From a virus: a DNA stretch of 64,000 nucleotides. Where the stretch lies: the IMG/VR virus record IMGVR_UViG_3300045988_092366; one strand, written 5' to 3'. The notes under the pieces were generated by a model. That model was not told the DNA's origin. It was given only the letters and a program-made list of their open reading frames with translations, and did not search any database. Position 1 is the first letter of the stretch. The number at the start of each line of letters is the position of its first letter. Below, piece after piece: positions 26,338-40,295 of this stretch. The position numbers and the translations under genes were made by a program.

Positions 26338-26366
26338 TTAAATCAATCAAACTAGTTGACGTGGGC

Positions 26367-26399
26367 TTAAAGCCCCCCCCAAGAAGTGTAAGTTTGCAT
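26367..26399 (-). CDS. upstream mini-ORF a containing a G8 tract (MQTYTSWGGL*)
   Basis: SD GAAAGGA with 7-nt spacing. G tract read as TGG GGG GGG. With G10 its stop would become TGA overlapping codons 2-3 of fibre A (ATGGCTGA). Confidence 0.3.
   Translation of the reverse strand: MQTYTSWGGL
26373..26380. repeat. homopolymeric tract C8 (+) / G8 (-)
   Basis: Preceded on + by the hairpin GGGCTT/AAGCCC. Lies between fibres B and A. Confidence 0.9.
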
Positions 26400-26416
26400 A
26401 AAAATTCCTTTCAATC

Positions 26417-27613
26417 TTAAATTTTAATCCATATCTTACATGTATCGCTAGTAGGCTTTGTGCTAGATATGGTTATAATATCGCTCGCTGCCTTGGCATT
26501 GAGCTTTGTGTTCATTTCACTTTCAGTATAGTAGCGGTCATCGTGAGAATGGCTAGAGTTGGCTTTACCGTTTAGTTTGGTATTAACTTCACTTTCAGTG
26601 TAATATCTATCATCGTGAGTGTGACTTGGAAGGTCAGCTGCCACAAGTTTTCTAAACGATGCTTTTCCGTTGGAACCACTTGGAGCAGCTAATATAGTAT
26701 TAGCGGTTCTATCTGTTTGAGCACTATAAATATATGAACCCCAGTCACTAACATCTGTCATTTTGTGAGTGTGACCTGATGGAGAAAACGTTGAAGGTTT
26801 ACCACTAACATTACCCCATGAGACACTATTGGCAGAACCAGCACTGCTAGCATATGCAACTTTACCAATATCATAACCAGTAGCTTGTGCAGTGTATGCC
26901 CTTGTATCCATTGCAGCTCGGGGTTCATCGTTCATTAGCTGCCAAGAAGAGCCGTTACCACCACGAGTGCTGTTTGCTAAAATTCGGATATTACACGAAT
27001 TATATGTACCAGTAGCATGAAAATATAAATCAGCATATCCAACAGTTGATTTAGCAGAATGTATTTTTAAAATAAATTGGTCTGGTTCATATCCATATCT
27101 ACAAAGCCATTGAACAGTTCCATGAGTAGCCACAGCGCTTTCAGATACATTCTCATTGCGGAAACGGACTGCTAGAATGCCAAATCCACCATTTTCGTAA
27201 CCAGAATCTACACACAATACAACGCTACCATCGAACCAATTTTGCGCTGATTCTATTTTCAAACAACGCCAATATGGTTTAGCAGCGCTAGATTGAGTAA
27301 CATATCTTACAGTGCCATTTAGAGATTTTGTATAATTGGCAGTTCCAGAAATATTACATGTTACAACATTTCCTTCTGGATTATATTTAAAATTATCATT
27401 ATGGACTCTGTGAGTGTCATTGCCACTATCTGAAAACCAAATTGGCCTTAATGCATTTGCTGTCGCATTACCATAATTTTTTACAGCATTAGCAGCACCT
27501 CCTGCGGAATCTGCACCCGCATAATTATGGCTATGACTAGCAGCTGCTGCTCCCACCATGTCTGGAGTCCACTCTTTAAAAGACCCACCGCTAGGATAAT
27601 ATGCTTTAGCCAA
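26417..27613 (-). CDS. tail fibre / receptor-binding protein paralogue B (C-terminus ...TSDTCKIWIKI)
   Basis: HTHDDRYYTESE(V/M)NTKLN HxH fibre repeats; TTG start without SD. Confidence 0.55.
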   Translation of the reverse strand: MAKAYYPSGGSFKEWTPDMVGAAAASHSHNYAGADSAGGAANAVKNYGNATANALRPIWFSDSGNDTHRVHNDNFKYNPEGNVVTCNISGTANYTKSLNGTVRYVTQSSAAKPYWRCLKIESAQNWFDGSVVLCVDSGYENGGFGILAVRFRNENVSESAVATHGTVQWLCRYGYEPDQFILKIHSAKSTVGYADLYFHATGTYNSCNIRILANSTRGGNGSSWQLMNDEPRAAMDTRAYTAQATGYDIGKVAYASSAGSANSVSWGNVSGKPSTFSPSGHTHKMTDVSDWGSYIYSAQTDRTANTILAAPSGSNGKASFRKLVAADLPSHTHDDRYYTESEVNTKLNGKANSSHSHDDRYYTESEMNTKLNAKAASDIITISSTKPTSDTCKIWIKI

Positions 27614-27674
27614 TTACATCGCCCCCCCCCCAGCAGACCTCACTAAAGGTGCGCTGTGTTAAAATATTCTTCAT
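27606..27674 (-). CDS. upstream mini-ORF b containing a G10 tract (MKNILTQRTFSEVCWGGGDVIG*)
   Basis: Stop TAA overlaps codons 2-3 of fibre B (TTGGCTAA). Confidence 0.3.
   Translation of the reverse strand: MKNILTQRTFSEVCWGGGDVIG
27622..27631. repeat. homopolymeric tract C10 (+) / G10 (-)
   Basis: Read directly; lies between fibres C and B. Confidence 0.9.
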
Positions 27675-27681
27675 ATTATCA

Positions 27682-29817
27682 CTATACCTTAATCCATAAT
27701 TTACAAGTACTTGCGTTAGGCTGCGAAGAAGATACGATAACCTCTTCTGGTCGCCAAGTATTGGTGTTGGTATCTGTAAGAGCAATAGTCGCGTTACCAG
27801 ACTGATTGAGCGTAAAACTGCCCTTATTCGTACCATTCTGTGTGATTGTAACAGTGCCATTACCAACAGAAGGAATTGACGGTCTGCCAGAAATTTCAGA
27901 CCAAGAATAGGAAGGTTTACTTGAAGCCTTAGCCCAAGCATAAACGTCACTAGCTGGCATAGAGGACGGTCTACCAGAAACATTGCTCCATGCGACAGAA
28001 CCAGCTGTGTTAGCATGACTTACAGATTGCGAACCGATAGTAGCAGAAGTGATAATTTCCTGCGAGCTGCCACCAGTAGGTAGATAAGTCGTATTGGTAG
28101 AATTCTTGCCAGCATTAAAATTAGTATCTGTATCGTAAGCGAATACTAGGCGTTCATCGCCTGCTAAGTTGCCGACAGTCCAAGCGCCCTTAGCTGTCTT
28201 TTGACCTACAACTGGATTGTATGACTGTGAATTGGCAGTAGAACCAAAAACGATAGCATTAATACGACCTTGAATCCAACTGCCACCAGCACCACGAAGG
28301 ATGCGGCCAGTCATTGTACCACCAGCAAGAGGTAGATAAGAGTGAGAGTGGCTTGCAGGAGCAGCACCTACATCACCAGCAGAAAGTGTGATATTAGCAC
28401 TTAAAGCCTTACCATTGACTGTGCGGCTAGCTGGAACATATGAACTAAACTTATCGTTCAAGGCTTTACCCTGTGCCGCAGACAGTGATTGGTCGGTAGC
28501 AGTAGAAGTAAGATTATTCTGAACAGGACGCCAAGTATTTGTATCTGTAGAATGTACTGTAATATTACCACTTGCGTCAGATGTTACAGAAGTAGCGCCA
28601 GTACCTTTAATAACCACACCACTACGGAAAGTATTATTATCTGTAACATTGATATAAGTGTTACCGTTTGTAGTAGCAGCATTTGCAGTGCCACTTTTTG
28701 CGCCAGCTACGATATTGGTAGTATAATGAGTATTTGTATCTGTCTTTGGCGGGGTGTAGCCAAGAGCAGTAGTAACATTAGCGCTTGTAAGTTCGCCACG
28801 AATTGTCGCAGAAGACTTATTCTCTACACTACCAAGACCCAAATCGGCTTTTGTAGTCTTGTGCGGATTGCCAGTAGATGTGGAGTGGTTATATGCAGCA
28901 CGAGATTCATCACCATAACCAGCAGTGGAATGAGTTGTACCGAGGGCAATAGTTTCAGAAATTACGACATATGTGCTACCGCTCCAACGATAGGTTTTGT
29001 TGTTGCTAAGGTCAACATAAATCTTACCAGCTTCGGCTTTGATTTCACCAGAATATGCGCCACTAGAGCTTTTTGTGGTATAGAATTTGCCACCATTTAA
29101 ATAACCTTCGATAACATCATCGACATAGCTTGGAAGATGCGCTGCATCAATTACACCGCTAATGCGCGAAGCAGGAAGATTACCACTAACTTCACTAATA
29201 GTATAGCTAGGCTTGCTTGACTGCTTAGCCCATGAATAGACATCGCTCGCTGGCATACTAGTTGGGAAGTCTGTAATCTGAGCTTTTGTATGTGTGTGGC
29301 TTGAATTAGCTTTTGCATTCAGCTTTGTATTGATTTCGCTCTCAGTATAATACCTATCATCATGAGTATGGCCTGTATTAGACTTGCCGTCAAGTGCAGA
29401 TTTAATGACCTTATTCTGTACAGGATTCATTGAAGTAGTAGAAAGTTCTGCATCAACAGTAACGTGATTTGAACCTGCGGCAACACCGTCAAGTTTAGCC
29501 TTGTCTGCGGCAGACATAAGACCTGCGGCACTGGCAGTAGCATTGCCGTATACAGTATTTGAATCTGTAACATTAAATGTGCTACCATCGCTACCTCTAA
29601 GAGTGATTGTACTACCGCTCTTGGTTAAGTTATAAGTTGTATTTGTATTGATATTATCTTTAATCTGAATCAGAGAGGATGAAGAAATACCCATCCACAA
29701 AGTGCCGGTATCGGTGGCAACATACAATGCACCGTCCAATACTTTATTTTCGGCAGTGAGTGCTTTGATATTAGGTTCTTTATCTCTGATAAATTTTACT
29801 CTTGCTATCTTGCTCAC
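27682..29817 (-). CDS. tail fibre paralogue C (711 aa; C-terminus ...ASTCKLWIKV)
   Basis: GHTHDDRYYTESEINTKLNAKANSSHTH and SMPASDVY(S/A)WAK repeats. N-terminal module VKFIRDKEP...LYVATDTGTLW is shared with 3 other proteins. GTG start. Confidence 0.55.
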   Translation of the reverse strand: MSKIARVKFIRDKEPNIKALTAENKVLDGALYVATDTGTLWMGISSSSLIQIKDNINTNTTYNLTKSGSTITLRGSDGSTFNVTDSNTVYGNATASAAGLMSAADKAKLDGVAAGSNHVTVDAELSTTSMNPVQNKVIKSALDGKSNTGHTHDDRYYTESEINTKLNAKANSSHTHTKAQITDFPTSMPASDVYSWAKQSSKPSYTISEVSGNLPASRISGVIDAAHLPSYVDDVIEGYLNGGKFYTTKSSSGAYSGEIKAEAGKIYVDLSNNKTYRWSGSTYVVISETIALGTTHSTAGYGDESRAAYNHSTSTGNPHKTTKADLGLGSVENKSSATIRGELTSANVTTALGYTPPKTDTNTHYTTNIVAGAKSGTANAATTNGNTYINVTDNNTFRSGVVIKGTGATSVTSDASGNITVHSTDTNTWRPVQNNLTSTATDQSLSAAQGKALNDKFSSYVPASRTVNGKALSANITLSAGDVGAAPASHSHSYLPLAGGTMTGRILRGAGGSWIQGRINAIVFGSTANSQSYNPVVGQKTAKGAWTVGNLAGDERLVFAYDTDTNFNAGKNSTNTTYLPTGGSSQEIITSATIGSQSVSHANTAGSVAWSNVSGRPSSMPASDVYAWAKASSKPSYSWSEISGRPSIPSVGNGTVTITQNGTNKGSFTLNQSGNATIALTDTNTNTWRPEEVIVSSSQPNASTCKLWIKV

Positions 29818-29832
29818 ATCCTTTCTGATATA

Positions 29833-30594
29833 TTATTTAATAGAAGACCAAGTTAAATCATCTGGCGTAGCAAAATCAGAAGCATCATGATATGCGGCAG
29901 ATTTTAAACCATATACTGCCACAGATTTATCTTTAACTTTAATTGTACCATTTGCAGTGCCAGTAGTGATAGATGGAACTGTCAAAACATCAGATGGCAA
30001 AATGCCGCTTGCAACGGTATCGACATATGCTTTAGTGGCAATGTCATTATCGTCATTGATGACTTGACCAGCCGCGTATTTAATTTTACCAGATAAAGTA
30101 CCACCAGTAAGAGGAAGATATTTCGCTTTCTCTTGGTCGGTATATGCCTTTGCATCTTTAAGGGCTTTATCTGCCTTTACTTGTGCGTCTGTTGAAGACG
30201 CACCAGATGCAGTCTTAATTGCTGAATTCATCTCACTCTTGGTTGGATAGTTCGATAAGTCGGTCTTAGAGCCACCTAGCTTTTCAAACTTACCATTAAC
30301 CCAAAAATATTCAGTATATTCATTGCTGGATTCAGTCAAATCTGGCAACATATAAATTGTATTTTCTTCGCCAGTAGAAGGAAGAGTTGACCCTTTTGCC
30401 AGCACAACACGTTTAAGATGCGGCGCACCTGCTACTGCATTTGCAATAGCCGTGTTCATAGCATCTTTTTTAACATATTCTGCTGGAACTTTATCACTCG
30501 GAATGTTAACATCCCAGTTAATATCAGAAGCATCTACGAGTTTGAAAGTGCCGTTATTCTTTTGTTTGATTTTATCAATAAGTTGAACAGGCAT
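29833..30594 (-). CDS. Ala-rich fibrous structural protein (paralogue of 31437 and 33292)
   Basis: Shares HLKR..., TIYM(V/L)P and KADKAL(K/E)DAKAYTD modules. Confidence 0.4.
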   Translation of the reverse strand: MPVQLIDKIKQKNNGTFKLVDASDINWDVNIPSDKVPAEYVKKDAMNTAIANAVAGAPHLKRVVLAKGSTLPSTGEENTIYMLPDLTESSNEYTEYFWVNGKFEKLGGSKTDLSNYPTKSEMNSAIKTASGASSTDAQVKADKALKDAKAYTDQEKAKYLPLTGGTLSGKIKYAAGQVINDDNDIATKAYVDTVASGILPSDVLTVPSITTGTANGTIKVKDKSVAVYGLKSAAYHDASDFATPDDLTWSSIK

Positions 30595-31412
30595 TATTTC
30601 ACCTCCACCGTAGTTGCACCTAATCCTGCATTAGTTGACCTATAGATATTATAAGAAGCGGTATAGCCACTTGCATTTGTGAAATCAAAAGTCTTTACTT
30701 TGTTGAAGCCACCCTCGAAACCTCCAACATAAAATGCGGGAGTTCCAAAAGAAGCAGGAATAGCAAAATAAATATACTGCTCAGCATTAGCTGTGACGCT
30801 CCATGAACCCGTGCGACCAGACACTAAATTTCTAGTAAGCCCTTTGACAAACGCCGCATCTATCTTAGAAGTATCTGTTATATTGCTCACGCCATAGTAT
30901 TTACCATTTAAAAAGTAAATTGTAGTCTGCTTAGTAGATGTGGCTTTGCGAGCGTCAGTAGCAGTCAAAGTAAATGCGGTCGTTGCGGTAAGAGGTGCCG
31001 CAAATGTAATTGCCGCAGTTCCAGATTGCGTCTTGTTGATTTCAAATGATTGACCACCTGCTGTAATTGTCAGTTTAGAAGGTTGTTTATTCAAATTCCA
31101 AGAGAAGTTGGAAGATGGAAGACGAGAACCTATTTCAAGTGTGCCGCTATTGTTAGAAAAACTATTAACGGACATTGCTTTATAAATTGAAAGTGTGCCG
31201 TCAGAGGTAATATCAAAATCTCCGCTTGGCTTGATAATACCTGCGGCAGAGCCGGTGGCAATTTTAATATCGCCACAGCTGTATTTGATATTATTTTTCA
31301 TGATACTCGTGGTATCTGAAAGAAAATAGATTCCGTTGGGGTCTATTTTGGTAGACCCCAACGCATCATACTCTGATTGCACGCCTGTGTAAAATCTAAT
31401 ATCAGCAGACAT
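30594..31412 (-). CDS. structural protein with shared N-terminal module
   Basis: N-terminus IRFYTGVQSEYDALG...NGIYFLSDTTSI is homologous to the N-termini of 31437, 32861 and fibre C. Confidence 0.4.
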   Translation of the reverse strand: MSADIRFYTGVQSEYDALGSTKIDPNGIYFLSDTTSIMKNNIKYSCGDIKIATGSAAGIIKPSGDFDITSDGTLSIYKAMSVNSFSNNSGTLEIGSRLPSSNFSWNLNKQPSKLTITAGGQSFEINKTQSGTAAITFAAPLTATTAFTLTATDARKATSTKQTTIYFLNGKYYGVSNITDTSKIDAAFVKGLTRNLVSGRTGSWSVTANAEQYIYFAIPASFGTPAFYVGGFEGGFNKVKTFDFTNASGYTASYNIYRSTNAGLGATTVEVK

Positions 31413-31436
31413 ACAATCTCCTTAATCTAATTTAAA

Positions 31437-32849
31437 TTAGAGTGTTTGCCATTCAATTAGGCCGTTAGCATATTCTTTAGCAGAAGCAAGAGCGTTATTG
31501 GCCTTAGTTGTAGCATCTGCGGCAGCAGCGTCAACGGCTTCGGTCTTTTTTGTGTCAGCATAGGTTTTAGCTTCAGTAAGAGCACCAGCAGCAGCACCAG
31601 AAGCATCAAAGGCACCGCTGTTTTGATAAGCAGCAGAGCCTAGACCCTTAACAGCAACGTCTGAACCCTTAACAGAGATTGTACCATTAGCAGTGCCAGA
31701 AACAACATCTGCGGCCTGAACAGCAGAGTCAGCTTTGGCGCCTTGGGCGGCAGTAGCATAATTCTTGGCTAGACCATCGGAATAAGCCTTGGCATCTTCA
31801 AGAGCCTTATCAGCTTTTTTACCAGCTTCGGTAATAGCAGCAGCTTGAGCAGCGTCAGCCTTTGTGGTGGCATCTGCTGCGGCGGTAGCAATGGCAGCAG
31901 CCTTAGCGGCATCTGCCTTAGTCTGAGCGTCAGTAGCAGCTTCACCCTTAGCGGTAGAGATAGCATCAGTTACTTGGTCTTTGGTGAAGTAGTTGCCAAG
32001 GTCTACGTCAGAAGTACCAATACGCTCAAAGGCACCATTGACAAGCATGTATTCAGTATAAACAGACTTGTTGGAGCCTGCGGTATCGGTGCTACCAGCA
32101 TCGGGAACCATATAGATAGTATCTTCGTTGGCTTCGGAAACCTCGGGAAGAACGCTAACGATTTCACGCTTGAGGTGGTGCGCATTAGCTACGGCAGCAG
32201 CAATAGCGGTATTGGCTTCATCCTTTGTATAGGCATCGGCGATACCGTAACCAGCAAGGGTAGTAGCTTTGTCAGCTTTCTTGTCGATGTTGGCCTGTAG
32301 CTCGGTTTTAGCAGCGGTAACCTGTTTGGTGGTTTCAGCAGCAGCTGCTTCAATAGCTTCTGTCTTCTTAGTGGCAGAATCAGCTTTGGCATCTTCTAGA
32401 GCTTTGTCGGCTTTAGAAGTGGCGTCTGTGGCAGCGGCGGCGATAGCAGCAGCCTGAGCATCAGCGGCAGCTTTCTTGATAGAGCCTTCGCCCTCACCTT
32501 GAATAACCGTTAATTTTCCATCTGCGGCAGAAATATTATTTTCAGCAGTAGTAACACGCTGGGTAAGAGCAGAAAGGTCTGCGGCAACGGTTGTTGGCTT
32601 AACAACTGTAATATACTTGGTGCCGTCCCAATAGGCAACGTTGTCTCCATTATCACCTACAATATATAGGGTATTAATTTTACCCTGCGTAGGAAGTGCG
32701 CTTACTTTTTCGTAAATACCACCAGAGTATGGTGTATTACCTTTGTAAATGCGCTGCTCTTCTTCTACAAAATAAAGAGTATTAGCGTCTTTATTTTCAA
32801 GGCCTTGGTAGCCAGCAAGAGTAGCAGCTACAAATTTAACTTGACTCAT
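31437..32849 (-). CDS. Ala-rich coiled-coil fibre protein
   Basis: GEGEGSIKKA, TTLAGYGIADAYTKDEANTAIAAAVANAHHLKR, repeated KADKALEDAKA; shared N-terminal module. Confidence 0.4.
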   Translation of the reverse strand: MSQVKFVAATLAGYQGLENKDANTLYFVEEEQRIYKGNTPYSGGIYEKVSALPTQGKINTLYIVGDNGDNVAYWDGTKYITVVKPTTVAADLSALTQRVTTAENNISAADGKLTVIQGEGEGSIKKAAADAQAAAIAAAATDATSKADKALEDAKADSATKKTEAIEAAAAETTKQVTAAKTELQANIDKKADKATTLAGYGIADAYTKDEANTAIAAAVANAHHLKREIVSVLPEVSEANEDTIYMVPDAGSTDTAGSNKSVYTEYMLVNGAFERIGTSDVDLGNYFTKDQVTDAISTAKGEAATDAQTKADAAKAAAIATAAADATTKADAAQAAAITEAGKKADKALEDAKAYSDGLAKNYATAAQGAKADSAVQAADVVSGTANGTISVKGSDVAVKGLGSAAYQNSGAFDASGAAAGALTEAKTYADTKKTEAVDAAAADATTKANNALASAKEYANGLIEWQTL

Positions 32850-32860
32850 TCACGTCTCCT

Positions 32861-33283: not shown

Positions 33284-33291
33284 TTTAACTC

Positions 33292-34644: not shown

Positions 34645-34660
34645 AATTTATAACTCCTTT

Positions 34661-35665
34661 CTAAATGGTTACTGTAAATGTCATTGGAGCTGCGGCAGGA
34701 GCAGCCATAGCGTAGCTATAGACTTTATAGTTTGCAGCTGTTGCTCCGTTGGCACCTTCGACAGACACGGTCTGCTTGGCAAAGCTAGAAGCCATGCTAA
34801 TATCATTTGTTTCTTCATATTTCACTTGGCTTACATCACGAAGAGCCGCAGGATAGGCGAAAACAATATATTGTTGCCCTTGAGCGACTTTAATGGTAAG
34901 TTTGGTACCAGCAGTAGGATTAAGAGACTTACCAGTAAGACCACGTACAATTGCAGAATTTAGCTCAGGTACAGAGCCTACACCAGTGCCATAAAAGGCA
35001 TTTCGCTTTCCAACATAAGAAAGTGCATTTGATGTAATAGAACCAGCAGTAATATGACCAGCTGGGGAATCATCTCCAAGATTATCTTGCTTGATTGCAC
35101 CCTCGGCATAAGAAGCAATAGCTTTAAAAGAAGTGGTACCTTCTCCAATAGTAATTGAATGGTCAGATAGAACTAGTGGGCTAGTAGTACCCTCAAGTAC
35201 GTCTACAGTACCATCAGAAATTTTAATTGCGGTAAGAGCGCCAGCATCTTGCTTCGTAAAGTTTGCTGTCATTGTTGCTGCAAGGGTAGTACCAACTTCA
35301 TAATTGCCCGGTTGAGCGCCTTTTGAAACCGCAAGAGAAATCTTAGGTGCAATATATGTAGCAGGTACACGTTTCATAATAATCTTTTTAATTAATGCAT
35401 CTAAATCAGTACCAGCTTCAATAACATCGCCAGTCTTGATACCGCCAACACTTCCACCAACGCCTAGTTGAACAGTGTGAGCCTGTTTAGATTTAGCGTT
35501 GCCAAGTGTATGCGGCACTTTAGAATCATCTACATAAATCATATTATCTTCTGTAGAAATAACGACACTATTTGTACCAATAGTCCCAGCGGTAATACTA
35601 TCATTTAGTTTTGTTTCAGAACCATGAAAAAAACTAATTTTTTTTGCATTTTCTGCATCAGCCAT
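34661..35665 (-). CDS. hypothetical structural protein (Gly/Thr/Ala-rich)
   Basis: 334-aa ORF in the tail module. Confidence 0.3.
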   Translation of the reverse strand: MADAENAKKISFFHGSETKLNDSITAGTIGTNSVVISTEDNMIYVDDSKVPHTLGNAKSKQAHTVQLGVGGSVGGIKTGDVIEAGTDLDALIKKIIMKRVPATYIAPKISLAVSKGAQPGNYEVGTTLAATMTANFTKQDAGALTAIKISDGTVDVLEGTTSPLVLSDHSITIGEGTTSFKAIASYAEGAIKQDNLGDDSPAGHITAGSITSNALSYVGKRNAFYGTGVGSVPELNSAIVRGLTGKSLNPTAGTKLTIKVAQGQQYIVFAYPAALRDVSQVKYEETNDISMASSFAKQTVSVEGANGATAANYKVYSYAMAAPAAAPMTFTVTI

Positions 35666-35728
35666 ATGTTTGTAACCCCTCTCTATTGAGTATAAAAATT
35701 TTTATATATATAAAAATAAACCATATAG

Positions 35729-36337
35729 CTAAAATTCTCGAATCTTAACTTCTGCGCTGATAGCTATCTGGTCTAATTTATTTTCTACTGAAACGGCTTT
35801 ATCATATGCACTTGTTGCAATTTGTTTGATTTCTTTTGTTTCCTTTGTCCATTCTTGAAATTCTTTACGTTGTTCATTCATTTGTTTTTCCATCTTGTCC
35901 CCAAGAGTAGCAAGATGGATTACAGCATTTTGAAAAGCGCTAAAATCATCAGAAACGACAAACGCAGAGCCGTCATTTGGGTCGGACAATACATGTACAA
36001 GAAAATTCGTGCTAGAAGCAATTGATACCGAATCAACTAATTCGACACAACAAAGCACGTCTCCTTCATGTAACATGGCTTGCGGCCATTTAATTTCCCA
36101 TACGATAGGGTCTTCATGTGTTTTTGTAAAAACATTATATCCTTTTATATCTAGTTGAACATGCCGCCAACTCAAATAAACTTTTGTATCTGCGACACAT
36201 TGCGCAGCAGCTTCTTGGTCGAAAATAATTCTAAAAGTACGACCATTTGCATCTGCGCCGCCAGCCACAATAGGGTCTTGAATGTCTTGGTCAAGAGACT
36301 TTAAATTGACTGTAACTGCTTTTAATTCCTGACTCAT
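35729..36337 (-). CDS. hypothetical structural protein (globular N-domain plus C-terminal coiled coil)
   Basis: 202 aa; C-terminal heptad-like QMNEQRKEFQEWTKETKEIKQ. Confidence 0.3.
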   Translation of the reverse strand: MSQELKAVTVNLKSLDQDIQDPIVAGGADANGRTFRIIFDQEAAAQCVADTKVYLSWRHVQLDIKGYNVFTKTHEDPIVWEIKWPQAMLHEGDVLCCVELVDSVSIASSTNFLVHVLSDPNDGSAFVVSDDFSAFQNAVIHLATLGDKMEKQMNEQRKEFQEWTKETKEIKQIATSAYDKAVSVENKLDQIAISAEVKIREF

Positions 36338-36961
36338 TTATTCACCCCTTTCATTGTTCTTTTGGCTTACAATAAATTGTGGATTGGAAAGATTGATTCT
36401 CGGTAGTTCGCGTATCTCTTCCATTAAGCCATCAATGAATGAGTTGCCGCCTGCCGCTTTATAATATAAATATCTACGCTCTAGAGATTCTAGATTAAGG
36501 TCATCAATAGCCTTAATTTCATAGCAAAAATAGTGATGCTTGTCAATGATATAACTGCGGGAGTTCTCCTGCAATCTTTCAAGAGTAAGTTTTTCATGCT
36601 CTTGGAGTGCTTTAATATCATTCGATTGGTTGCTAATTTCTTGGCTAAGCCTTTTAATGTCTGCTTGCAACGAAGCAATACTTTCTATAATCTCAGAGTG
36701 CTGTGTATCTTTAAGTGTCTGATAATTGAAGAATTTTTTTAATTTATTATAAAAATATTCCAATAGTTCACTTAAAAATTTAAAAGCAACAGCTAAAGTC
36801 ACAACTAGCATAACGATAGCTCCGAAAGAGTATTGCGACACTAGTTGCGACAAAGCATCCATTCTCGGCAATATCCCTTCTTCTCTACATAATCTAATAT
36901 AATATGAAAATAATTTATATTTGATTTTAGGAATTTGCCCATAAAAAAATGAGGGAAACAT
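36338..36961 (-). CDS. hypothetical membrane/coiled-coil protein
   Basis: TM FGAIVMLVVTLAVAF followed by coiled coil. Confidence 0.3.
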   Translation of the reverse strand: MFPSFFYGQIPKIKYKLFSYYIRLCREEGILPRMDALSQLVSQYSFGAIVMLVVTLAVAFKFLSELLEYFYNKLKKFFNYQTLKDTQHSEIIESIASLQADIKRLSQEISNQSNDIKALQEHEKLTLERLQENSRSYIIDKHHYFCYEIKAIDDLNLESLERRYLYYKAAGGNSFIDGLMEEIRELPRINLSNPQFIVSQKNNERGE

Positions 36962-36985
36962 AAAGTTTCCCTCGAATAAAATAAA

Positions 36986-37372
36986 TTAAGCGGTTCTATG
37001 CCACACATAGCAATTTTGATAAGCTGGTAAATTATTATGAGCTTTTCCGTCACCTTTTGATTCTACATATTTATCAATAAACTTATTAGAATAATCCAAA
37101 CCAGCCGCGCCAATTTGATAAGGCAAATTGGTAGCAATGTTATTACCAGCTTGCTTAGTTGATATGTGGTGAGTATGAGGTGGCATTTCACCAACGGTAA
37201 GTTTATGTGTGTCTTCCCCGCCGGTATTAGTATTTGTTGAAGCTCGTAGCACTTTATCAGTTATTTGTGTCCAAGTACCGCCAATACTGGATGCCGGTGA
37301 AGCGCTATGAAAAGAAATATATACAGAACCAACAGGGTAGACAATATCCATGAGGTTAACGTAATTAGACAT
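36986..37372 (-). CDS. phage tail-collar-domain protein paralogue 4
   Basis: MSNYVNLMDIVYPVGSVY...GGEDTHKLTVGEMPPHTHH...CYVWHRTA; SD GAGGT. The track TTG at 37378 lies 2 codons upstream. Confidence 0.5.
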   Translation of the reverse strand: MSNYVNLMDIVYPVGSVYISFHSASPASSIGGTWTQITDKVLRASTNTNTGGEDTHKLTVGEMPPHTHHISTKQAGNNIATNLPYQIGAAGLDYSNKFIDKYVESKGDGKAHNNLPAYQNCYVWHRTA

Positions 37373-37402
37373 ACGCAACCTCGCTTAGATTTAGATTGCT
37401 TG

Positions 37403-37858
37403 CTACGCTGTGCGATACCAAATAAAGCAAGTTGTGTAAGGTGGCAAGTTGTTGTGTGCTTGCCCCCCCCCATTAGAAGCAATAGTGTGGGTATGGTTAC
37501 CAACCTCAGACGTATACTGTCCACCAAACCTACCAACAGAACCAAAATAATTACCAGCACCTTGAAGAACGTTACCTCCACCTGGACCGTACCATGCGAT
37601 AATTCGTTCATCAATACTGTGATTGTGTTTGCCAGCTTCTCCTGTAGAACCATTGTGGCTGTGAGCGGGCATTTCATTAAGGCTAAGCGTGTGCGTTGCT
37701 TCGCCGCCCGTATTCTTGGCGGTTGTAGACCCATAAAGAAAAGTGTTCAATCGTGTCCAAGTGCCACCAATAGAGCTAGCAGGAGATGTTGCATCCATGC
37801 TCTGATAGATTGAACCTACTGGATATATAATATCCATGAGGTTTACAAAATTACTCAT
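37403..37858 (-). CDS. phage tail-collar-domain protein paralogue 3 (contains an in-frame G9 tract near its 3' end)
   Basis: MSNFVNLMDIIYPVGSIY...GGEATHTLSLNEMPAHSHN...NGGGQAHNNLPPYTTCFIWYRTA. Confidence 0.5.
   Translation of the reverse strand: MSNFVNLMDIIYPVGSIYQSMDATSPASSIGGTWTRLNTFLYGSTTAKNTGGEATHTLSLNEMPAHSHNGSTGEAGKHNHSIDERIIAWYGPGGGNVLQGAGNYFGSVGRFGGQYTSEVGNHTHTIASNGGGQAHNNLPPYTTCFIWYRTA
37463..37471. repeat. homopolymeric tract C9 (+) / G9 (-) inside collar paralogue 3
   Basis: Codes GGG GGG GGG. Followed by the hairpin GGCAAG...CTTGCC. A G10 variant would read through to a TAA overlapping the ATGTCTAA start of paralogue 4. Confidence 0.85.
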
Positions 37859-37902
37859 TTATATCCTTTCTAATTGCATAGAAAGAATATTATAAAATCT
37901 TC

Positions 37903-38358
37903 TTAGGCTGTTCTTTTATATACTGCTAAAGAATAATGATATGGAATATGCTCTTGTTGTTCGGTAACAAAATGTCCGTTATCATTAAGTTTCCAAGTAC
38001 CTTTAGTCCACAAATTCCAACCAGTATCGCCACCATCTTTAGTACCGACTGACAATAATTGCCATAAACTACCAGCAGCAGCATTAGTATTCCAAAAACC
38101 AATACCTGAATATTGTTGCAGTTTACCATTCCAACCAACAACATTGTGCTGATGGTCTGGTATGGCTAGCGAAGAAATCATATTGCTACCAGAAAAACGT
38201 CCAGCTACGTTATAGGTATCACCACTTGCCGCAAGCAAACAATTTTCTATTTTAGTCCAAGTTCCGCCAATACTACTCGCAGGAGAAGTACTAGAAGTAC
38301 TAAAGTATATACTACCTACTGGATAAATAATATCAAGAAGATTTACAAAATTAGACAT
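37903..38358 (-). CDS. phage tail-collar-domain protein paralogue 2
   Basis: MSNFVNLLDIIYPVGSIY...IPDHQHN...; C-terminus ...AVYKRTA. Confidence 0.5.
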   Translation of the reverse strand: MSNFVNLLDIIYPVGSIYFSTSSTSPASSIGGTWTKIENCLLAASGDTYNVAGRFSGSNMISSLAIPDHQHNVVGWNGKLQQYSGIGFWNTNAAAGSLWQLLSVGTKDGGDTGWNLWTKGTWKLNDNGHFVTEQQEHIPYHYSLAVYKRTA

Positions 38359-38452
38359 GGTAAATCACCATGCTTAGAACAGCCATTGAAGAAGAAGCTA
38401 CATTATTGTAGCCCCCCCCCCAACGACCGTGATTAGTCATTAAGTTTTTCAT
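38351..38452 (-). CDS. upstream mini-ORF d containing a G10 tract (33 aa; MKNLMTNHGRWGGGYNN...)
   Basis: SD GAAAGGA. Stop TAA overlaps codons 2-3 of collar paralogue 2 (ATGTCTAA). Confidence 0.3.
   Translation of the reverse strand: MKNLMTNHGRWGGGYNNVASSSMAVLSMVIYHV
38412..38421. repeat. homopolymeric tract C10 (+) / G10 (-)
   Basis: Preceded on + by the hairpin CTACA-TTAT-TGTAG. Confidence 0.9.
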
Positions 38453-38487
38453 AATATCCTTTCATTTAGGATATTAGATTTTAGATT

Positions 38488-38868
38488 TTAAGCAGTTCGT
38501 ACCCAGACTCTACAAGCATATGAATAAGGATAATAATCAAGTCCTCTTCCCTCGGTACTAGTATATTTGGTAACGAATATGCTACTGTCGTCAAGTCCAC
38601 CGCCACCCCATTGGTACGGCCAATCATTATTAACGCCATTACCAGCATGTTTATTTGTGGCAGAATGTTTATGTGCTGGCATTTGGTCAACTGTAATATG
38701 TTTGCTGCCCGTATAACCAGAAGTACTAGTATATGCGGCCAAGCAAGCGCCATCTTTAATCTGTGTCCAAGTGCCACCGATAGACGTTGCAGGTGAAACA
38801 GTGCTAGTAGTAATATACATACTATTTATAGGATAAATAATATCTAAAAGATTTACAAAATTGCTCAT
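38488..38868 (-). CDS. phage tail-collar-domain protein paralogue 1
   Basis: MSNFVNLLDIIYPINSMY...MPAHKHS...CRVWVRTA; strong SD AAGGAGGT. Confidence 0.5.
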   Translation of the reverse strand: MSNFVNLLDIIYPINSMYITTSTVSPATSIGGTWTQIKDGACLAAYTSTSGYTGSKHITVDQMPAHKHSATNKHAGNGVNNDWPYQWGGGGLDDSSIFVTKYTSTEGRGLDYYPYSYACRVWVRTA

Positions 38869-38934
38869 TATTCAACCTCCTTATTTGGGAGGTCATCTAA
38901 AATCATAATATCAAATTGATTTATAGATTTTAAG

Positions 38935-38985
38935 CTACCGCAGTAGCCCCCCCCCTAGAGAGGTCAATTCATTAAATTTATTCAC
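38935..38985 (-). CDS. upstream mini-ORF e containing a G9 tract (GTG start; VNKFNELTSLGGGLLR*)
   Basis: SD AAAGGAG. G tract followed by the hairpin GCTAC-TGCG-GTAGC. A G8 variant would terminate at the TAATG overlapping the collar-1 start. Confidence 0.25.
   Translation of the reverse strand: MNKFNELTSLGGGLLR
38947..38955. repeat. homopolymeric tract C9 (+) / G9 (-)
   Basis: The adjacent hairpin GCTACCGCAGTAGC is duplicated at 39654-39667. Confidence 0.9.
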
Positions 38986-39030
38986 ATAAAACTCCTTTTC
39001 TTTCTTAGAATTATATTCTATATCTATATG

Positions 39031-39064
39031 AAAAAAGGGCAAAACCCGTAACAGGATTTTGCCC
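39031..39064 (-). terminator. rho-independent terminator inside the fibre array
   Basis: - strand: GGGCAAAATCC-TGTTAC-GGGTTTTGCCC followed by TTTTTT. Lies downstream of fibre D. Confidence 0.7.
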
Positions 39065-39073
39065 AAAGTTATA

Positions 39074-39625
39074 TTAGATTTTAATCCACAATTTACATCT
39101 TGAATCCGTTGGTTGCGCAGATTGTACCATAACGCAATATTCATTATCAGCACTGCCAGCTTTTGTCGCATAGCTCGCCGAGCTTGCACTGCCAGCACTG
39201 GCCGCATATTTCACACTCTTGGATGAATCAGCCGTATTATCGACATTGCCCAATCCAACAGAAGATTTAGAAGGAGGATAAGCGTTTGTATAAAATTCCT
39301 CTACAGAGATAACAGAACCATTCGAGTAAGTCACTCTATAAGCCTTGCCCGGGCCAGTCATAGGAAATAACAATAAATTACCATATTTATAATTATCTTC
39401 ACCAACACCAGTCCTATGCGGCACATATAAATAATTATACCAAGAGCCACCAGTAAAGCTCAATCTTTTCTCTTTTGACTGATTGAACATACATGACCCT
39501 AGCGATGGAGGTCTATTCACTAATTTTACAATTAAATCATCTATTGTGTCCGCATTATTTTCTTGCGCTGTCATAGCTGGGATTACAGTAAAATTCTTCC
39601 CATTTGAAAAATAAAATTCGCTCAC
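39074..39625 (-). CDS. tail fibre paralogue D (C-terminus ...PTDSRCKLWIKI)
   Basis: MSEFYFSNGKNF... GTG start with no properly spaced SD. Confidence 0.5.
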   Translation of the reverse strand: MSEFYFSNGKNFTVIPAMTAQENNADTIDDLIVKLVNRPPSLGSCMFNQSKEKRLSFTGGSWYNYLYVPHRTGVGEDNYKYGNLLLFPMTGPGKAYRVTYSNGSVISVEEFYTNAYPPSKSSVGLGNVDNTADSSKSVKYAASAGSASSASYATKAGSADNEYCVMVQSAQPTDSRCKLWIKI

Positions 39626-39655
39626 TCCATATCATATAGAATGGTATCTATAGAG

Positions 39656-39700
39656 CTACCGCAGTAGCCCCCCCCCATCCCATAAAAGATTAATAAACAT
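39656..39700 (-). CDS. upstream mini-ORF f containing a G9 tract (MFINLLWDGGGLLR*)
   Basis: SD AAAGGAG overlaps the stop of fibre E. A G8 variant would end at a TGA overlapping the GTG start of fibre D (GTGA). Confidence 0.3.
   Translation of the reverse strand: MFINLLWDGGGLLR
39668..39676. repeat. homopolymeric tract C9 (+) / G9 (-)
   Basis: Same GCTACCGCAGTAGC hairpin as at 38933-38946. Confidence 0.9.
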
Positions 39701-39710
39701 ATTTTCTCCT

Positions 39711-40226
39711 TTAAATCTTTATCCATAATTTACAAGTAGAAGATGTAGGCTGAGAAGATGATACGGTGACAATATCATTGGCCGCATACTGAGAATGCGT
39801 ATGCGATGCTTGTGCAAACATATTTTTATTGATTGTTTTTAATGTATTACCATCATACGCAGCTATCCAAGTGAAGCCAGAATAGGGCAAGTCCTTAGCG
39901 CTATAAGAAACTTTTAAATCACGCCCATCGCCAGAGTCTTTGATTAAACCAGCTTCATTAGCATATTTTACTAATTTATCCGCATCGGCTGTGTTATCAA
40001 CAGCATTAAGACCTAACCACTTTTTATATTCTGTCTTAGATACGTCTTTAATTTTCTTATCATTGCTTAGTCCAAGAGCATAAGTAAAATCTGCGGCAGT
40101 AAAACTAGACCCAGACCATCCTAGCTTGATTACATTATTCGGATTATTGTAATCTCGCACGCCGTCAGCTTTAGAAGGGACAAATTCAGAAAAATTCGTC
40201 CCATCGCTTACCATAAAATCAGCCAC
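39711..40226 (-). CDS. tail fibre paralogue E (C-terminus ...PTSSTCKLWIKI)
   Basis: MADFMVSDGTNF...; GTG start, poor SD. Confidence 0.5.
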   Translation of the reverse strand: MADFMVSDGTNFSEFVPSKADGVRDYNNPNNVIKLGWSGSSFTAADFTYALGLSNDKKIKDVSKTEYKKWLGLNAVDNTADADKLVKYANEAGLIKDSGDGRDLKVSYSAKDLPYSGFTWIAAYDGNTLKTINKNMFAQASHTHSQYAANDIVTVSSSQPTSSTCKLWIKI

Positions 40227-40240
40227 ACCTATCAGCTAAG

Positions 40241-40285
40241 CTATTTAGCGGGGCAGATGCCCCCCCCCAGAAATGTGTTATTCAT
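40241..40285 (-). CDS. upstream mini-ORF g containing a G9 tract (MNNTFLGGGICPAK*)
   Basis: SD AAGGA. A G8 variant would end at a TGA overlapping codons 2-3 of fibre E (GTGGCTGA). Confidence 0.3.
   Translation of the reverse strand: MNNTFLGGGICPAK
40260..40268. repeat. homopolymeric tract C9 (+) / G9 (-)
   Basis: Flanked by hairpins GGGGC-AGAT-GCCCC and GCTAA-GCTA-TTAGC. Confidence 0.9.
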
Positions 40286-40295
40286 ATCTACATCC

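Follow-up and report, generated by a model that had tools for sequence, protein, structure and literature searches.

Why should a phage carry long runs of G in its receptor-binding protein (RBP) arrays and nowhere else in the stretch examined? The question is raised by 64 kb of DNA, hereafter the window, from an uncultured human gut phage of ~ 140 kb. The best reading we can offer, held with moderate confidence and well ahead of its rivals, is that the runs form slipped-strand contingency switches acting through translational coupling from leader ORFs; the effects on expression are inferred.

PolyG Tracts and Leader ORFs of the Window

A sequence scan of the 64-kb window reveals seven C runs on the + strand, equivalent to G8-G10 on the - strand. 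All seven lie on the coding (-) strand and are confined to two tail-fibre/collar arrays, with no further G or C run of ≥ 7 in the window; by our arithmetic from the window base composition, ~ 0.2 runs of ≥ 8 would be expected by chance. Six tracts (a, b, d, e, f, g) lie within short, SD-led leader ORFs, and tract c is in frame within a collar gene. A sequence-only reading had claimed seven such tracts, restricted to RBP arrays, and the computed recount upholds it. All leader peptides it quoted are likewise reproduced (MQTYTSWGGL, ...CWGGGDVIG, ...RWGGGYNN..., ...SLGGGLLR, ...WDGGGLLR and ...FLGGGICPAK), and its GC content of 35% failed, the actual value being 37.7%.

All features described here read on the - strand. 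The upstream array opens with tail-fibre gene F519 (40296..41855, ending in ...VKIWVQI), which matches PHROG tail-fibre families and Pfam Phage_fiber_2 and carries its own SD, AAGGAGG. Leader ORF g (40241..40285) has an AAGGA SD and an ATG at 40285, encodes MNNTFLGGGICPAK and contains tract g (40260-40268, G9). At G9 its stop ends 14 nt upstream of the fibre start, and at G8 or G11 it would reach the overlap GTGGCTGA (+8). The accessory fibre gene behind it, Fg171 (39711..40226, ending in ...CKLWIKI), has a GTG start without an SD. Leader ORF f (39656..39700; AAGGAG SD, ATG at 39700, MFINLLWDGGGLLR) contains tract f (39668-39676, G9); its stop lies 30 nt upstream of the next start, and G8 or G11 would lead to GTGA (+4). 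The accessory fibre gene Ff183 (39074..39625) again starts with GTG without an SD and has weak PHROG tail-fibre matches.

An intrinsic-terminator-like hairpin with a T run (39031..39064) separates these fibre genes from the collar array. Leader e alone follows a terminator and a possible promoter, the other leaders being situated between tightly packed co-oriented genes. Leader ORF e (38935..38985, encoding MNKFNELTSLGGGLLR) has an AAGGAG SD and most likely starts with the GTG at 38985, a correction of the earlier reading, as the adjacent ATG runs straight into TGA. It contains tract e (38947-38955, G9; orthologues G7-G11) and ends 66 nt upstream of the next start; at G8 or G11 it would extend to 38 codons and TAATG (+1). 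An anti-SD, GACCTCC (38888-38894), is paired with the SD of collar gene 1, GGAGGTT (38874-38880), the element spanning 38874..38894. This collar-type receptor-binding gene, C1 (38488..38868, 126 aa), matches Pfam Gp10_C and PHROG tail families.

Leader ORF d (38351..38452; AAGGA SD, ATG at 38452, 33 codons) contains tract d (38412-38421; orthologues G7-G11), whose present G10 is the coupled phase: the stop overlaps the start of collar-type gene C2 as ATGTCTAA (+8). C2 (37903..38358, 151 aa) has an ATG without an SD, and the hairpin GCATGGT/ACCATGT (38355..38373) buries this ATG. Tract c (37463-37471, G9) lies in frame as GGG near the 3' end of collar-type gene C3 (37403..37858, 151 aa), 19 codons before the stop, with the tail GGGQAHNNLPPYTTCFIWYRTA. 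Its + 1 frame ends on the ATGTCTAA start of the next collar-type gene, C4 (36986..37372, 128 aa), which has a GAGGT SD.

The downstream array begins with tail-fibre gene F711 (27682..29817, ending in ...CKLWIKV), with matches to Pfam Phage_fiber_rpt and PTR and to PHROG tail-fibre families. Leader ORF b (27606..27674; ATG at 27674, MKNILTQRTFSEVCWGGGDVIG) contains tract b (27622-27631; orthologues G7-G10). Its present G10 is coupled through TTGGCTAA (+8), and at G9 the leader would also end directly against the TTG start (distance 0). Compared with most relatives, the window copy carries a 14-nt deletion; relatives without it have the start inside a GCCAAT/ATTGGC hairpin. Fibre gene Fb398 (26417..27613) starts with TTG without an SD, the homologous start in relatives being ATG. 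Leader ORF a (26367..26399; AAGGA SD, ATG at 26399, the decapeptide MQTYTSWGGL) contains tract a (26373-26380, G8; orthologues G8-G10). Its stop falls 29 nt upstream of fibre gene Fa370 (25225..26337, ATG without an SD), and G7 or G10 would create ATGGCTGA (+8).

The stop/start overlaps claimed earlier for b and d at their present length, for the other four leaders after a change in the tract, and for the in-frame seventh tract after gain of one G all held; the possible failure named with them, that miscounting had produced an apparent consistency, is not borne out by recomputation. No tract length fuses a window leader ORF with its fibre frame. The predicted leader length shifts with tract phase, from 10-17 to 21-38 codons.

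Frame Architecture

Of 103 family leaders, 98 have one and only one tract phase in which the leader ORF is carried on to a stop that overlaps the next start, through ATGNCTRA, GTGA or TAATG (+8, +4 and +1); in the remaining two phases, a stop is usually met within about 20 nt. Chance alone makes a bridging frame likely in short leaders (shuffle probabilities 0.6-0.9). Counted over independent leader types, bridging frames are present in 14 of 16 vs 8.8 expected from shuffles (P = 0.002), and two frames are closed ≤ 20 nt from the tract in 10 of 13 types vs 2.7 expected (P = 1.4e-5). This architecture is shown; that the bridging phase is the ON state is inferred.

The coupled phase is occupied by only 33 of the 103 family leaders, and the modal G9 is mostly uncoupled (7 ON, 41 OFF). 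Such a distribution might reflect random phase or default-OFF bet-hedging, and is equally compatible with no selection on phase. Collar-gene tracts across relatives are split between 17 contexts in frame and 19 out of frame with respect to the conserved C-terminus, and the out-of-frame tails terminate on the start of the next gene.

Ribosome-Binding Sites and RNA Structure

An SD precedes 92 of the 103 family leader ORFs, and 89 of 103 start with ATG. Downstream genes lack an SD in 72 of 103 cases and start with GTG or TTG in 37 of 103. Late genes of the window with an ATG start have an SD in 17 of 18 cases; for leader-fed genes this is true of only one in six. Where the downstream gene does have a strong SD or ATG, it sits within a conserved hairpin with compensatory changes. 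The missing or masked sites and the covariation are observed directly. That the downstream genes recruit ribosomes poorly on their own is an inference from sequence alone.

The start-codon hairpin of C2, fed by leader d, is 100% paired in 13 variants, with all seven pairs varying; in one relative, the C2 ATG is changed to TTG and the change is compensated in the opposite hairpin arm. Controls with the pairing slid by 1-3 columns are 40-56% paired. In the consensus fold, leader d forms three helices, in which 99.2% of cells are paired and four pairs are compensatory, and its single-sequence fold reaches z = -7.3; tract d is predicted to pair with CTTCTTCTTC at 38388-38397. Leader f folds with z = -4.4, and the folds of leaders g, b, and a are no better than those of shuffles. 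Anti-SD/SD hairpins are also found in sequence-unrelated leader types. The structural logic is not settled, because in some minimum-energy folds the polyG pairs with the anti-SD and leaves the SD free.

These hairpins raise the possibility that the leader peptide switches transcription or mRNA fate rather than re-initiation, as in the pil1 operon of S. gallolyticus, with the extent of leader translation deciding whether a downstream hairpin acts as attenuator or processing site. The long conserved hairpin of leader d (the fold with z = -7.3) favors this view, as do a second d hairpin followed by CTAATTTTGT, flagged as terminator-like, and the pil1 precedent, which works by exactly such logic (PMC3894217). 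Against it, the terminator scan finds no hairpin-plus-U-run at leaders a, b, e, f, and g, the exact overlaps in 98 of 103 leaders and in unrelated phages indicate termination at the start codon, and the array genes are packed too tightly for separate transcription units. We consider this alternative unlikely.

In the coupling mechanism that we favor, G8-G10 homopolymers would gain or lose a G during phage DNA replication and thus behave as contingency loci, setting which RBPs a virion carries. A leader of the main class (a, b, d, e, f, g) is a short ORF with its own start signals placed directly after the preceding fibre gene, and the frame in which ribosomes exit the tract would be given by tract length modulo 3. 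In two phases, they would meet a stop within about 20 nt and be released well upstream of the next gene, which, lacking an SD, starting with GTG or TTG, or having its SD or start locked in a hairpin, would then be poorly translated. In the third phase, ribosomes would traverse the hairpin and terminate on the start codon (xTGNCTRA, GTGA, TAATG), opening the structure and re-initiating, so that the gene is translated. For the intragenic class (c and its relatives), with a tract about 20 codons before the collar gene stop, a length change would replace the conserved C-terminus, a classical frameshift OFF state, and the shifted frame would terminate on the start of the following collar gene. Both the slippage and its effect on translation are inferred, in the absence of expression data.

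Length Variation and Conservation among Relatives

Some 75 contigs of ~ 140 kb, from the human gut and IMG/VR, form the set of relatives. Tracts are kept in them at orthologous sites, with lengths of 6-11 and one G20; at the site of tract g, relatives that share the downstream half have G8-G11, and chimeric leaders have G7. In related loci totalling 2.1 Mb, G runs of 4 to 11 number 1361, 115, 29, 15, 33, 134, 46, and 15, respectively, with two of length 20. This bimodal distribution has its second peak at G9. The same run-length count over these 2.1 Mb gives no C run of ≥ 7, and all tracts of the related loci are within RBP arrays. Taken together, the length distribution, the strand bias, and the restriction to RBP arrays indicate that the tracts are selected features.

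Length is variable at 10 of 11 orthologous tract sites. Between genomes 99.75-99.9% identical (20-57 substitutions in 22 kb), four of five tracts differ, and tract changes are nearly the only indels. The polymorphism is thus shown between genomes; switching within a population is inferred, as no reads were available. A point against the switch is that intergenic T runs, too, differ in length between relatives.

All tract lengths were taken from assemblies, in which polyG lengths are error-prone, and some near-identical contig pairs possibly originate from the same or related samples. One could argue that the tracts are neutral mutational hot spots, or sequencing or assembly artefacts, without function; homopolymer lengths from short reads are unreliable, and the phase distribution looks random. 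Speaking against this, orthologous sites carry a tract in > 100 loci retrieved from many metagenome assemblies, in diverged relatives whose neighboring 764-aa protein is 50-99% identical. The tracts are also on the coding strand only, peak at 9, and are embedded in a non-random design of frames and structures. This explanation appears very unlikely.

A further alternative is non-genetic slippage by ribosomes (re-pairing of tRNA-Gly) or RNA polymerase, with DNA length changes being incidental; each genome would then produce a fixed mix of the three leader frames and hence a set level of each fibre. Runs of ≥ 9 identical bases permit re-pairing in any frame, all tracts are G on the mRNA strand, and the roughly random phases (33 of 103 coupled) would be tolerable if every genotype expressed some of each frame. 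However, tract length does differ between near-identical genomes, and 19 of 36 intragenic collar tracts are out of frame, a state that could hardly be tolerated unless switching were real. Moreover, the documented cases of efficient transcriptional slippage mainly involve A or T runs. We therefore judge this explanation improbable.

Tracts as Recombination Joints

A second role for the tracts, as joints for deleting or exchanging fibre cassettes, is suggested by the tract being the sole sequence common to otherwise unrelated leaders. Leader halves upstream and downstream of the tract reassort among relatives: upstream of its tract, L001 matches the g leader at 98% identity, and downstream it matches the e leader at 79%; in L005 and L012 the g upstream half is joined to the f downstream half. 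Deletion or replacement end points fall exactly on tracts in these three loci and in L011, L024, and L025. Fg171 is missing in some relatives, with the deletion end point precisely at the tract, and in collar genes the tract is the border between variable body and conserved C-terminus. The chimeric junctions are shown.

It could be proposed that the tracts are only such joints, short and very stable G:C microhomologies at cassette borders where template switching or illegitimate recombination could delete, duplicate, or exchange fibre genes, their length having no role in expression. The independent assortment of leader halves and the end points on tracts support this, and PeSL cassettes of T4-type phages, which shuffle via a repeated regulatory motif, provide a precedent (2010, PMC2839356). 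As with PeSL, a short repeated regulatory element flanks dispensable genes and coincides with insertion, deletion, and replacement end points. PeSL are promoter-plus-terminator units of tens of bases, a trait not met by the window leaders, in which the element is a 7-11 nt homopolymer within a leader ORF. A joints-only view leaves unexplained the SD and ATG before the tracts, the two early stops with one start-reaching frame, the missing or masked downstream ribosome-binding sites, and the recurrence of this frame design in unrelated single-tract phages. It seems doubtful as a full account, and the joint role is compatible with the coupling switch as a second function.

Comparison with Known Systems

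RBP genes of Campylobacter Fletchervirus contain hypermutable polyG tracts (Sorensen et al. 2021, Cell Rep 35:109214; cited in PMC10877375, PMC12823448). These tracts are thought to yield phenotypic subpopulations by slipped-strand mispairing. Both systems have G9-G11 runs in a large phage, clustered in an RBP region with several alternative RBPs. In the one genome examined, phage NCTC12673, there are only two runs of ≥ 7 (G9 and G11), about 30 codons into the 5' part of ORFs. Fletchervirus thus represents classical in-ORF frameshifting, whereas six of the seven window tracts are in separate leader ORFs; polyG within RBP coding sequence is met only by tract c and other collar tracts, at the 3' end. 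The window has no megablast match in the phage collection and no sequence relationship to Eucampyvirinae. The hosts differ as well, Campylobacter as opposed to a likely gut Firmicute. The label of Gram-positive type attached to the phage earlier is plausible, because of strong SDs, endolysin similarity, and an SPbeta-like PolIII-alpha: the endolysin has an Amidase_2 domain and shares 63% identity with an endolysin from a Clostridiales MAG contig, and the closest PolIII-alpha relatives are from Geobacillus, Bacillus SPbeta, and Staphylococcus phages at about 37%.

The S. gallolyticus pil1 pilus operon (Danne et al. 2014, PMC3894217) is an established case of leader-peptide phase variation, in which long leaders let ribosomes disrupt a downstream stem-loop, turning the operon ON. 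There, too, a slippage-prone repeat within a leader ORF sets leader length, translation of the window leaders being inferred. The pil1 system relies on GCAGA pentanucleotide repeats and transcription attenuation at a terminator, at one bacterial locus; the window instead has a homopolymer, a stop on the next start codon implying translational coupling, and a module repeated six times in RBP arrays. A pil1-type terminator overlapped by the long leader is not met, as the scan flags only the weak d start-codon hairpin.

Termination-reinitiation coupling at overlapping stop and start codons is known (Huber et al. 2019, PMC6728339; 2023, PMC10666635), and gaps of about 20 nt nearly abolish it (PMC10666635). 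As coupling is strongly distance-dependent, stops 14-66 nt upstream would be ineffective in the window leaders. The lysis gene of MS2 is similarly activated by out-of-frame termination. Known couplings share the ATGA, TAATG, and 8-nt overlaps and a downstream gene without a usable ribosome-binding site of its own, but they are fixed. Here, a mutable tract chooses the overlap-reaching frame, so that coupling would be heritable but reversible.

Contingency loci are described for T-even and other phages (Gomez, Barrick and Waters 2025 preprint, PMC12633550), likewise simple-sequence repeats with a high mutation rate, linked to bet-hedging. Most of those loci are A runs of ≥ 6 that lie within ORFs, whatever the functional class, and act by frameshift, unlike the long, strand-specific G runs of the window, which are restricted to RBP arrays and mostly outside the regulated ORF. 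The features of a contingency locus that are met are a repeat of hypermutable length, length variation among near-identical genomes, and a placement that alters the leader frame. The leader-frame effect is shown, and the effect on the fibre gene is inferred.

Recurrence in Unrelated Phages

As an independent set, we took 31 non-family IMG/VR leaders chosen solely on an upstream SD-ATG-N-G9. A bridging frame is present in 26 of them vs 14.8 expected (P = 2e-7), and two frames are closed early in 15 of 28 vs 5.7 expected (P = 7e-5). Phages with a single tract display the same frame design. All downstream proteins with a PHROG function are tail fibre or tail, bar one weak "structural protein" match.

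The idea of phase-variable coupling through upstream ORFs, put forward in the sequence-only reading, is supported, since every sequence-level prediction held in relatives and in unrelated phages, with the ON/OFF effect remaining inferred. Sequence features also agree with its suggestion that fibre translation plausibly depends on termination-reinitiation, again by inference and without expression data. It had missed that the tracts double as exact recombination junctions of fibre cassettes, that collar genes have, near their 3' end, a second class of tract with the classical in-ORF position, and that the design is widespread beyond the window phage.

A bolder reading, which we hold to fall a little short of probable, is that the polyG leader is a widespread portable module of uncultured, largely gut, phages. 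Its parts would be a mini-ORF led by an SD, a tract of the G9 type, stops immediately behind it in two frames, a hairpin with the anti-SD or start codon, and an overlap of stop and start. Behind such a module, any small receptor-binding "tip" gene would become stochastically switchable, and the module would also supply a microhomology joint for capture, loss, and exchange of such genes. This would amount to a phase-variable cassette system for host range, with a role like that of diversity-generating retroelements, shufflons, and invertible fibre segments.

Changes in phage host range are usually ascribed to mutation, recombination, diversity-generating retroelements, or invertible segments; a heritable, reversible translational switch before each alternative receptor-binding gene would be a different route. 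From one gut phage genome, a mixed population of virions that differ in their fibre sets could then arise, as bet-hedging against gut bacteria whose surfaces are themselves phase-variable. The host-range consequence is inferred, without virion proteomics, and the rule that tract length modulo 3 predicts the fibres made is testable. The compact design might also serve in engineering tunable phages. That it recurs in unrelated viral contigs hints at a general mechanism ignored by current annotation pipelines, and the design explains fibre starts misplaced or missed by gene callers: in the sole case examined, homologues of the 398-aa fibre are called about 18 codons short.

Poly-G Tracts in the Fibre and Collar Arrays

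All genes of the region lie on the - strand and fall into two arrays. The upstream array consists of a fibre gene termed F519 (40296-41855), two small fibre genes (39711-40226 and 39074-39625), a terminator-like hairpin (39031-39064) and four paralogues of 126-151 aa with a collar-type Pfam domain, Gp10_C (38488-38868, 37903-38358, 37403-37858 and 36986-37372). The downstream array holds the fibre genes 27682-29817, 26417-27613 and 25225-26337. PHROG and Pfam matches of the array proteins are to tail fibre, tail protein, Phage_fiber_2, Phage_fiber_rpt, PTR and Gp10_C. A PDB sequence search with one collar protein and one fibre gave no matches, and the only match in a protein search for cultured relatives of fibre b (398 aa, encoded by 26417-27613) was a 27-residue repeat.

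The window, with a G+C content of 37.7%, contains exactly seven G/C homopolymers of 7 nt or more, all of them C on the + strand and hence G on the - strand. By our own arithmetic, base composition predicts ~ 0.2 runs of at least 8 nt. Six of the tracts lie in leaders, short ORFs led by a Shine-Dalgarno sequence (SD) ahead of a fibre or collar gene, and we call a leader coupled (inferred to be ON) when its stop overlaps the start of the next gene. Two leaders are coupled at present: that of tract b (27622-27631, -; G10), whose stop overlaps TTGGCTAA at a coupled length of G10, with G9 abutting the TTG, and that of tract d (38412-38421, -; G10), whose stop overlaps ATGTCTAA at coupled lengths of G7 and G10. 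In the other four, the leader stop precedes the next start by 29 nt (ATG) for tract a (26373-26380, -; G8), 66 nt (ATG) for tract e (38947-38955, -; G9), 30 nt (GTG) for tract f (39668-39676, -; G9) and 14 nt (GTG) for tract g (40260-40268, -; G9). Tract a would be coupled at G7 or G10 (ATGGCTGA), and tracts e, f and g at G8 or G11, by way of TAATG after 38 codons, GTGA and GTGGCTGA, respectively. Tract c (37463-37471, -; G9) is intragenic and in frame, its GGG lying inside a C-terminus that ends in SNGGGQAHNNLPPYTTCFIWYRTA and a stop, so that coupled lengths do not apply. The sequence-only reading had proposed a phase-variable switch of receptor-binding proteins (RBPs) through coupling to upstream ORFs; the leader peptides and stop/start overlaps it quoted were all reproduced.

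Conservation and Length Variation of the Tracts

In 2.1 Mb of related loci read in late-gene orientation, G runs of 4, 5, 6, 7 and 8 nt number 1361, 115, 29, 15 and 33, followed by 134 of 9 nt, 46 of 10 nt, 15 of 11 nt and 2 of 20 nt, while C runs of at least 7 nt are absent. Lengths near 9 thus form a second mode rather than the tail of a decay. Tracts in the relatives are found exclusively in RBP arrays, with up to 6-8 per genome in 20 kb (L053, L054).

Orthologous tract sites range from 6 to 11 nt despite nearly identical flanks, and length varies at 10 of the 11 orthologous sites with at least three distinct contexts. Three genome pairs are separated by only 20-57 substitutions in 22 kb; in these pairs 4 of the 5 tracts are unequal, and these differences are nearly their sole indels. 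All lengths were taken from short-read assemblies, and some near-identical pairs possibly come from the same or related samples, which was not checked. Among control homopolymers, A runs are stable, but intergenic T runs vary in length as well; the variability test is therefore weak when taken alone. A G20 tract occupies the g-leader position in one relative (L026:14220, also L052:1617) and happens to be in the coupled phase (+8).

Three-Phase Design of the Leaders

We collected 159 distinct tract contexts, among them 103 leaders for which the start of the following fibre or collar gene could be recognised. In 98 of these 103, one and only one of the three frames past the tract remains open to a stop at -3 to +20 nt of the next start, with recurring positions at +8 (xTGNCTRA), +4 (GTGA/ATGA) and +1 (TAATG), and the two non-bridging frames stop earlier. 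Collapsed to sequence-independent leader types, a bridging frame is present in 14 of 16, compared with 8.8 expected from shuffles (P = 0.002), and two frames are closed within 20 nt past the tract in 10 of 13, compared with 2.7 expected (P = 1.4e-5).

The translation signals are unevenly placed. On the 5' side of the tract an SD is found in 92/103 leaders and an ATG in 89/103. The downstream genes lack an SD in 72/103 cases and start with GTG or TTG in 37/103. Among the ATG-start late genes of the window, an SD precedes 17 of 18, compared with one of six leader-fed genes; in that single case, behind leader e, an anti-SD (GACCTCC) located 8 nt upstream pairs with the AAGGAGG. For fibre b (26417-27613, -), many of the called homologues (P0001-P0052) span only ~ 95% of the query, and one of them (P0001, 380 aa) starts ~ 18 codons inside the 398-aa ORF; public calls for this family therefore seem to miss the TTG and to use an internal ATG.

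Three other readings of the tracts were rejected. In a classical in-ORF switch, the leader ATG would be the real fibre start; this is contradicted by stops in the fibre frame between tract and start, and the fibre frame is reached from the leader at no tract length. Phase variation of a promoter spacer does not fit tracts that lie 3' of an SD and ATG amid tightly packed, co-oriented genes. The poly-G run itself serving as SD would have the right spacing only in the shortened b leader of the window and the wrong one in its relatives and in the other leaders.

RNA Structure of the Leaders

The predicted fold of the d leader (z = -7.3) comprises a long hairpin that pairs the G run with CUUCUUCUUC and a second hairpin, GCAUGGU/ACCAUGU, that holds the start codon. 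Across 13 distinct orthologues, 99.2% of the pair cells are standard pairs, with compensatory double changes at four pairs. In the start-codon helix all 7 pairs vary and yet 100% remain paired, compared with 40-56% in slid controls; in one relative an ATG-to-TTG change is matched by a compensating one in the facing arm. In its usual long form, leader b has its TTG sequestered in GCCAAU/AUUGGC, and the sequence-unrelated leaders L104, L054-15519, L045 and L017-14711 display anti-SD/SD or start-codon hairpins. Leaders g, a and the short form of b have folds no more stable than those of shuffles. In some minimum-energy folds the G run itself is paired with the anti-SD, which leaves the exact conformational logic unsettled.

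The b leader of the window (27600-27640; also L048 and L059) has a 14-nt deletion relative to most relatives, e.g., L036:13527, so that the TTG-burying hairpin loses its 5' arm. Its coupled lengths are G10 or G7, with G9 abutting, compared with G9 in undeleted relatives. At L001:14250-14330, an e-type leader lacks a 16-nt segment bearing the anti-SD (GACCTCC), and its tract (G7 plus TG) is coupled; this may be a de-repressed variant.

The Same Design in Unrelated Phages

An IMG/VR scan with the pattern AAGGAG-N4-9-ATG-N9-39-G9 returned at least 120 matches, and 119 of those analysed were usable. Classical tracts at the 5' end of an ORF account for 65 (26 in frame, 39 out of frame), and 54 are leader-like, with every phase shorter than 60 aa. 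Forty leader-like sites, on contigs of 27-64% G+C, have no 21-mers in common with the phage family of the window, and 31 remained after removal of duplicates. A bridging frame is present in 26 of these 31, compared with 14.8 expected (P = 2e-7), and two frames are closed within 20 nt in 15/28, compared with 5.7 expected (P = 7e-5). As these sites were picked on upstream features only, the result constitutes an independent replication. Many of the leaders have identical ATGA, TAATG, ATGGCTAA, TTGGCTAA or ATGTCTAA overlaps and anti-SD/SD hairpins.

We scanned 20 downstream proteins; wherever a PHROG function could be assigned, it was that of a tail fibre C-terminus (phrog_2712) or a collar-type tail protein, with the exception of one weak "structural protein" match. 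Leaders of this kind, with the stop/start overlap and the hairpins, precede small tail-fibre or collar-type genes on many unrelated viral contigs among loci L117-L236 (e.g., L121:2267-2317, L135, L145, L153, L163 and L212). One non-family contig carries two G9 tracts ~ 70 nt apart within a single leader region (L191:1703-1790).

Observed Phases and the Intragenic Collar Class

The coupled phase is present in 33/103 leaders, approximately one third; we thus saw no surplus of coupled leaders that would point to selection, and the distribution provides no evidence of selection on phase. At the modal length, G9, 7 leaders are coupled and 41 uncoupled, compared with 26 and 29, i.e., about half coupled, at other lengths. 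For most leader types, a single step from G9 leads to the coupled phase. This pattern could reflect a default-OFF design with rare ON variants. Equally, it could reflect fast drift, with assemblies giving whichever variant was in the majority. The genes downstream of the 103 leaders are all intact ORFs, and hence those in the uncoupled phase are not decaying.

Tracts in collar genes lie ~ 17-22 codons ahead of the stop, precisely where a variable body gives way to a conserved C-terminus (of types such as QAHNNLPPYTTCFIWYRTA and QDYIPYHY...WKRTA). The tract is in frame in 17 of the 36 contexts of this class and out of frame in the other 19, and the out-of-frame tails commonly extend to the start of the next collar gene, ending at TAATG or ATGTCTAA. 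From sequence alone, we infer that these tracts represent a second, classical class of switch.

Proposed Mechanism and Relation to Known Systems

Tract positions, length polymorphism, the frame design, absent or masked ribosome-binding sites, hairpin covariation and chimeric junctions are established by our data; the steps connecting them are inferred. Slippage in replication would alter tract length. In two phases the leader peptide would stop right after the tract, and ribosomes would let go 14-66 nt upstream of the start. In the remaining phase they would read across the hairpin, end translation at the start codon and initiate again there. Experiments in other systems support this proposal: termination-reinitiation coupling is almost abolished by gaps of ~ 20 nt (Huber et al., PMC10666635), and the S. 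gallolyticus pil1 operon is switched by repeat-dependent leader length, though via attenuation (Danne et al., PMC3894217). With slippage and the effect on translation inferred, and no read-level or expression data, we favor the switch mechanism as a whole by a modest margin only.

Poly-G switches are already known from phages, namely Campylobacter Fletchervirus (Sorensen 2021); in the genome of Campylobacter phage NCTC12673, the two tracts sit ~ 30 codons inside ORFs. Contingency loci of T-even and other phages are likewise in-ORF and mostly A runs (PMC12633550). In the literature searched, we found no account of phage fibre genes coupled to leader ORFs that carry homopolymer tracts. The principles combined here, a contingency locus, leader-peptide control and translational coupling, are known, and within that literature their arrangement is probably new. 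It occurs in six copies in one genome and recurs across unrelated phages.

Tracts as Joints of Fibre Cassettes

Leader halves 5' and 3' of the tract assort independently. In L001, the 5' half is 98% identical to the g leader of the window and the 3' half 79% identical to its e leader, and both small fibre genes are absent. L005 and L012 join a g half (93-98%) to an f half (86-89%) and lack fibre g, L011 joins a different 5' half to f (94%), and in L025 the tract connects a fibre leader with a C-terminal piece of a collar gene. Based on these chimeric junctions, which are directly observed, the tracts double as joints of fibre cassettes. The arrangement resembles PeSL-mediated shuffling in T4-type phages (PMC2839356), but the common element here is a homopolymer of 7-11 nt.

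Irrespective of size, the six fibre genes (25225-41855, -) all encode a common motif, (S/T)xQPTxSxCK(L/I)WIK(I/V), directly before the stop, with the variant KPTEEHVKIWVQI in F519. The small fibres have a common N-terminus of the MAELYLSDG or LAKAYYPSGG type. Conserved N-termini together with the C-terminal motif thus provide every fibre cassette with homologous ends. The common N-terminus also suggests that the small fibres presumably compete for one attachment site, in which case switching would alter virion composition and host range.

The Phage, Its Relatives and Host

Megablast of the 15-kb region revealed no close cultured relative at the DNA level, and searches for known RNA families and tRNAs across the window found none. 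The relatives, contigs of ~ 137-147 kb, come from IMG/VR and from assemblies with the title "human gut metagenome". The window encodes an Amidase_2 endolysin and several very large virion-type proteins, and its PolIII-alpha is ~ 37% identical to Geobacillus, SPbeta-like and Staphylococcus phage versions. The sole host clue is a 63% identity of the endolysin to one on a Clostridiales MAG contig; on this single match, a gut host of the Firmicutes type is plausible rather than demonstrated.

Two genes are split by endonuclease ORFs. The anaerobic ribonucleotide reductase NrdD (13170-16193, +) is divided into 13170-14417 and 15129-16193 around an HNH/NUMOD4 endonuclease ORF (14505-14987), with no Rfam intron match at the gathering threshold. 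The PolIII-alpha gene (5930-11014, +) is divided into a part with the PHP, NTPase and finger domains (5930-8521) and an HHH_6 part (9707-11014), between which lies a GIY-YIG homing-endonuclease-like ORF (8624-9532).
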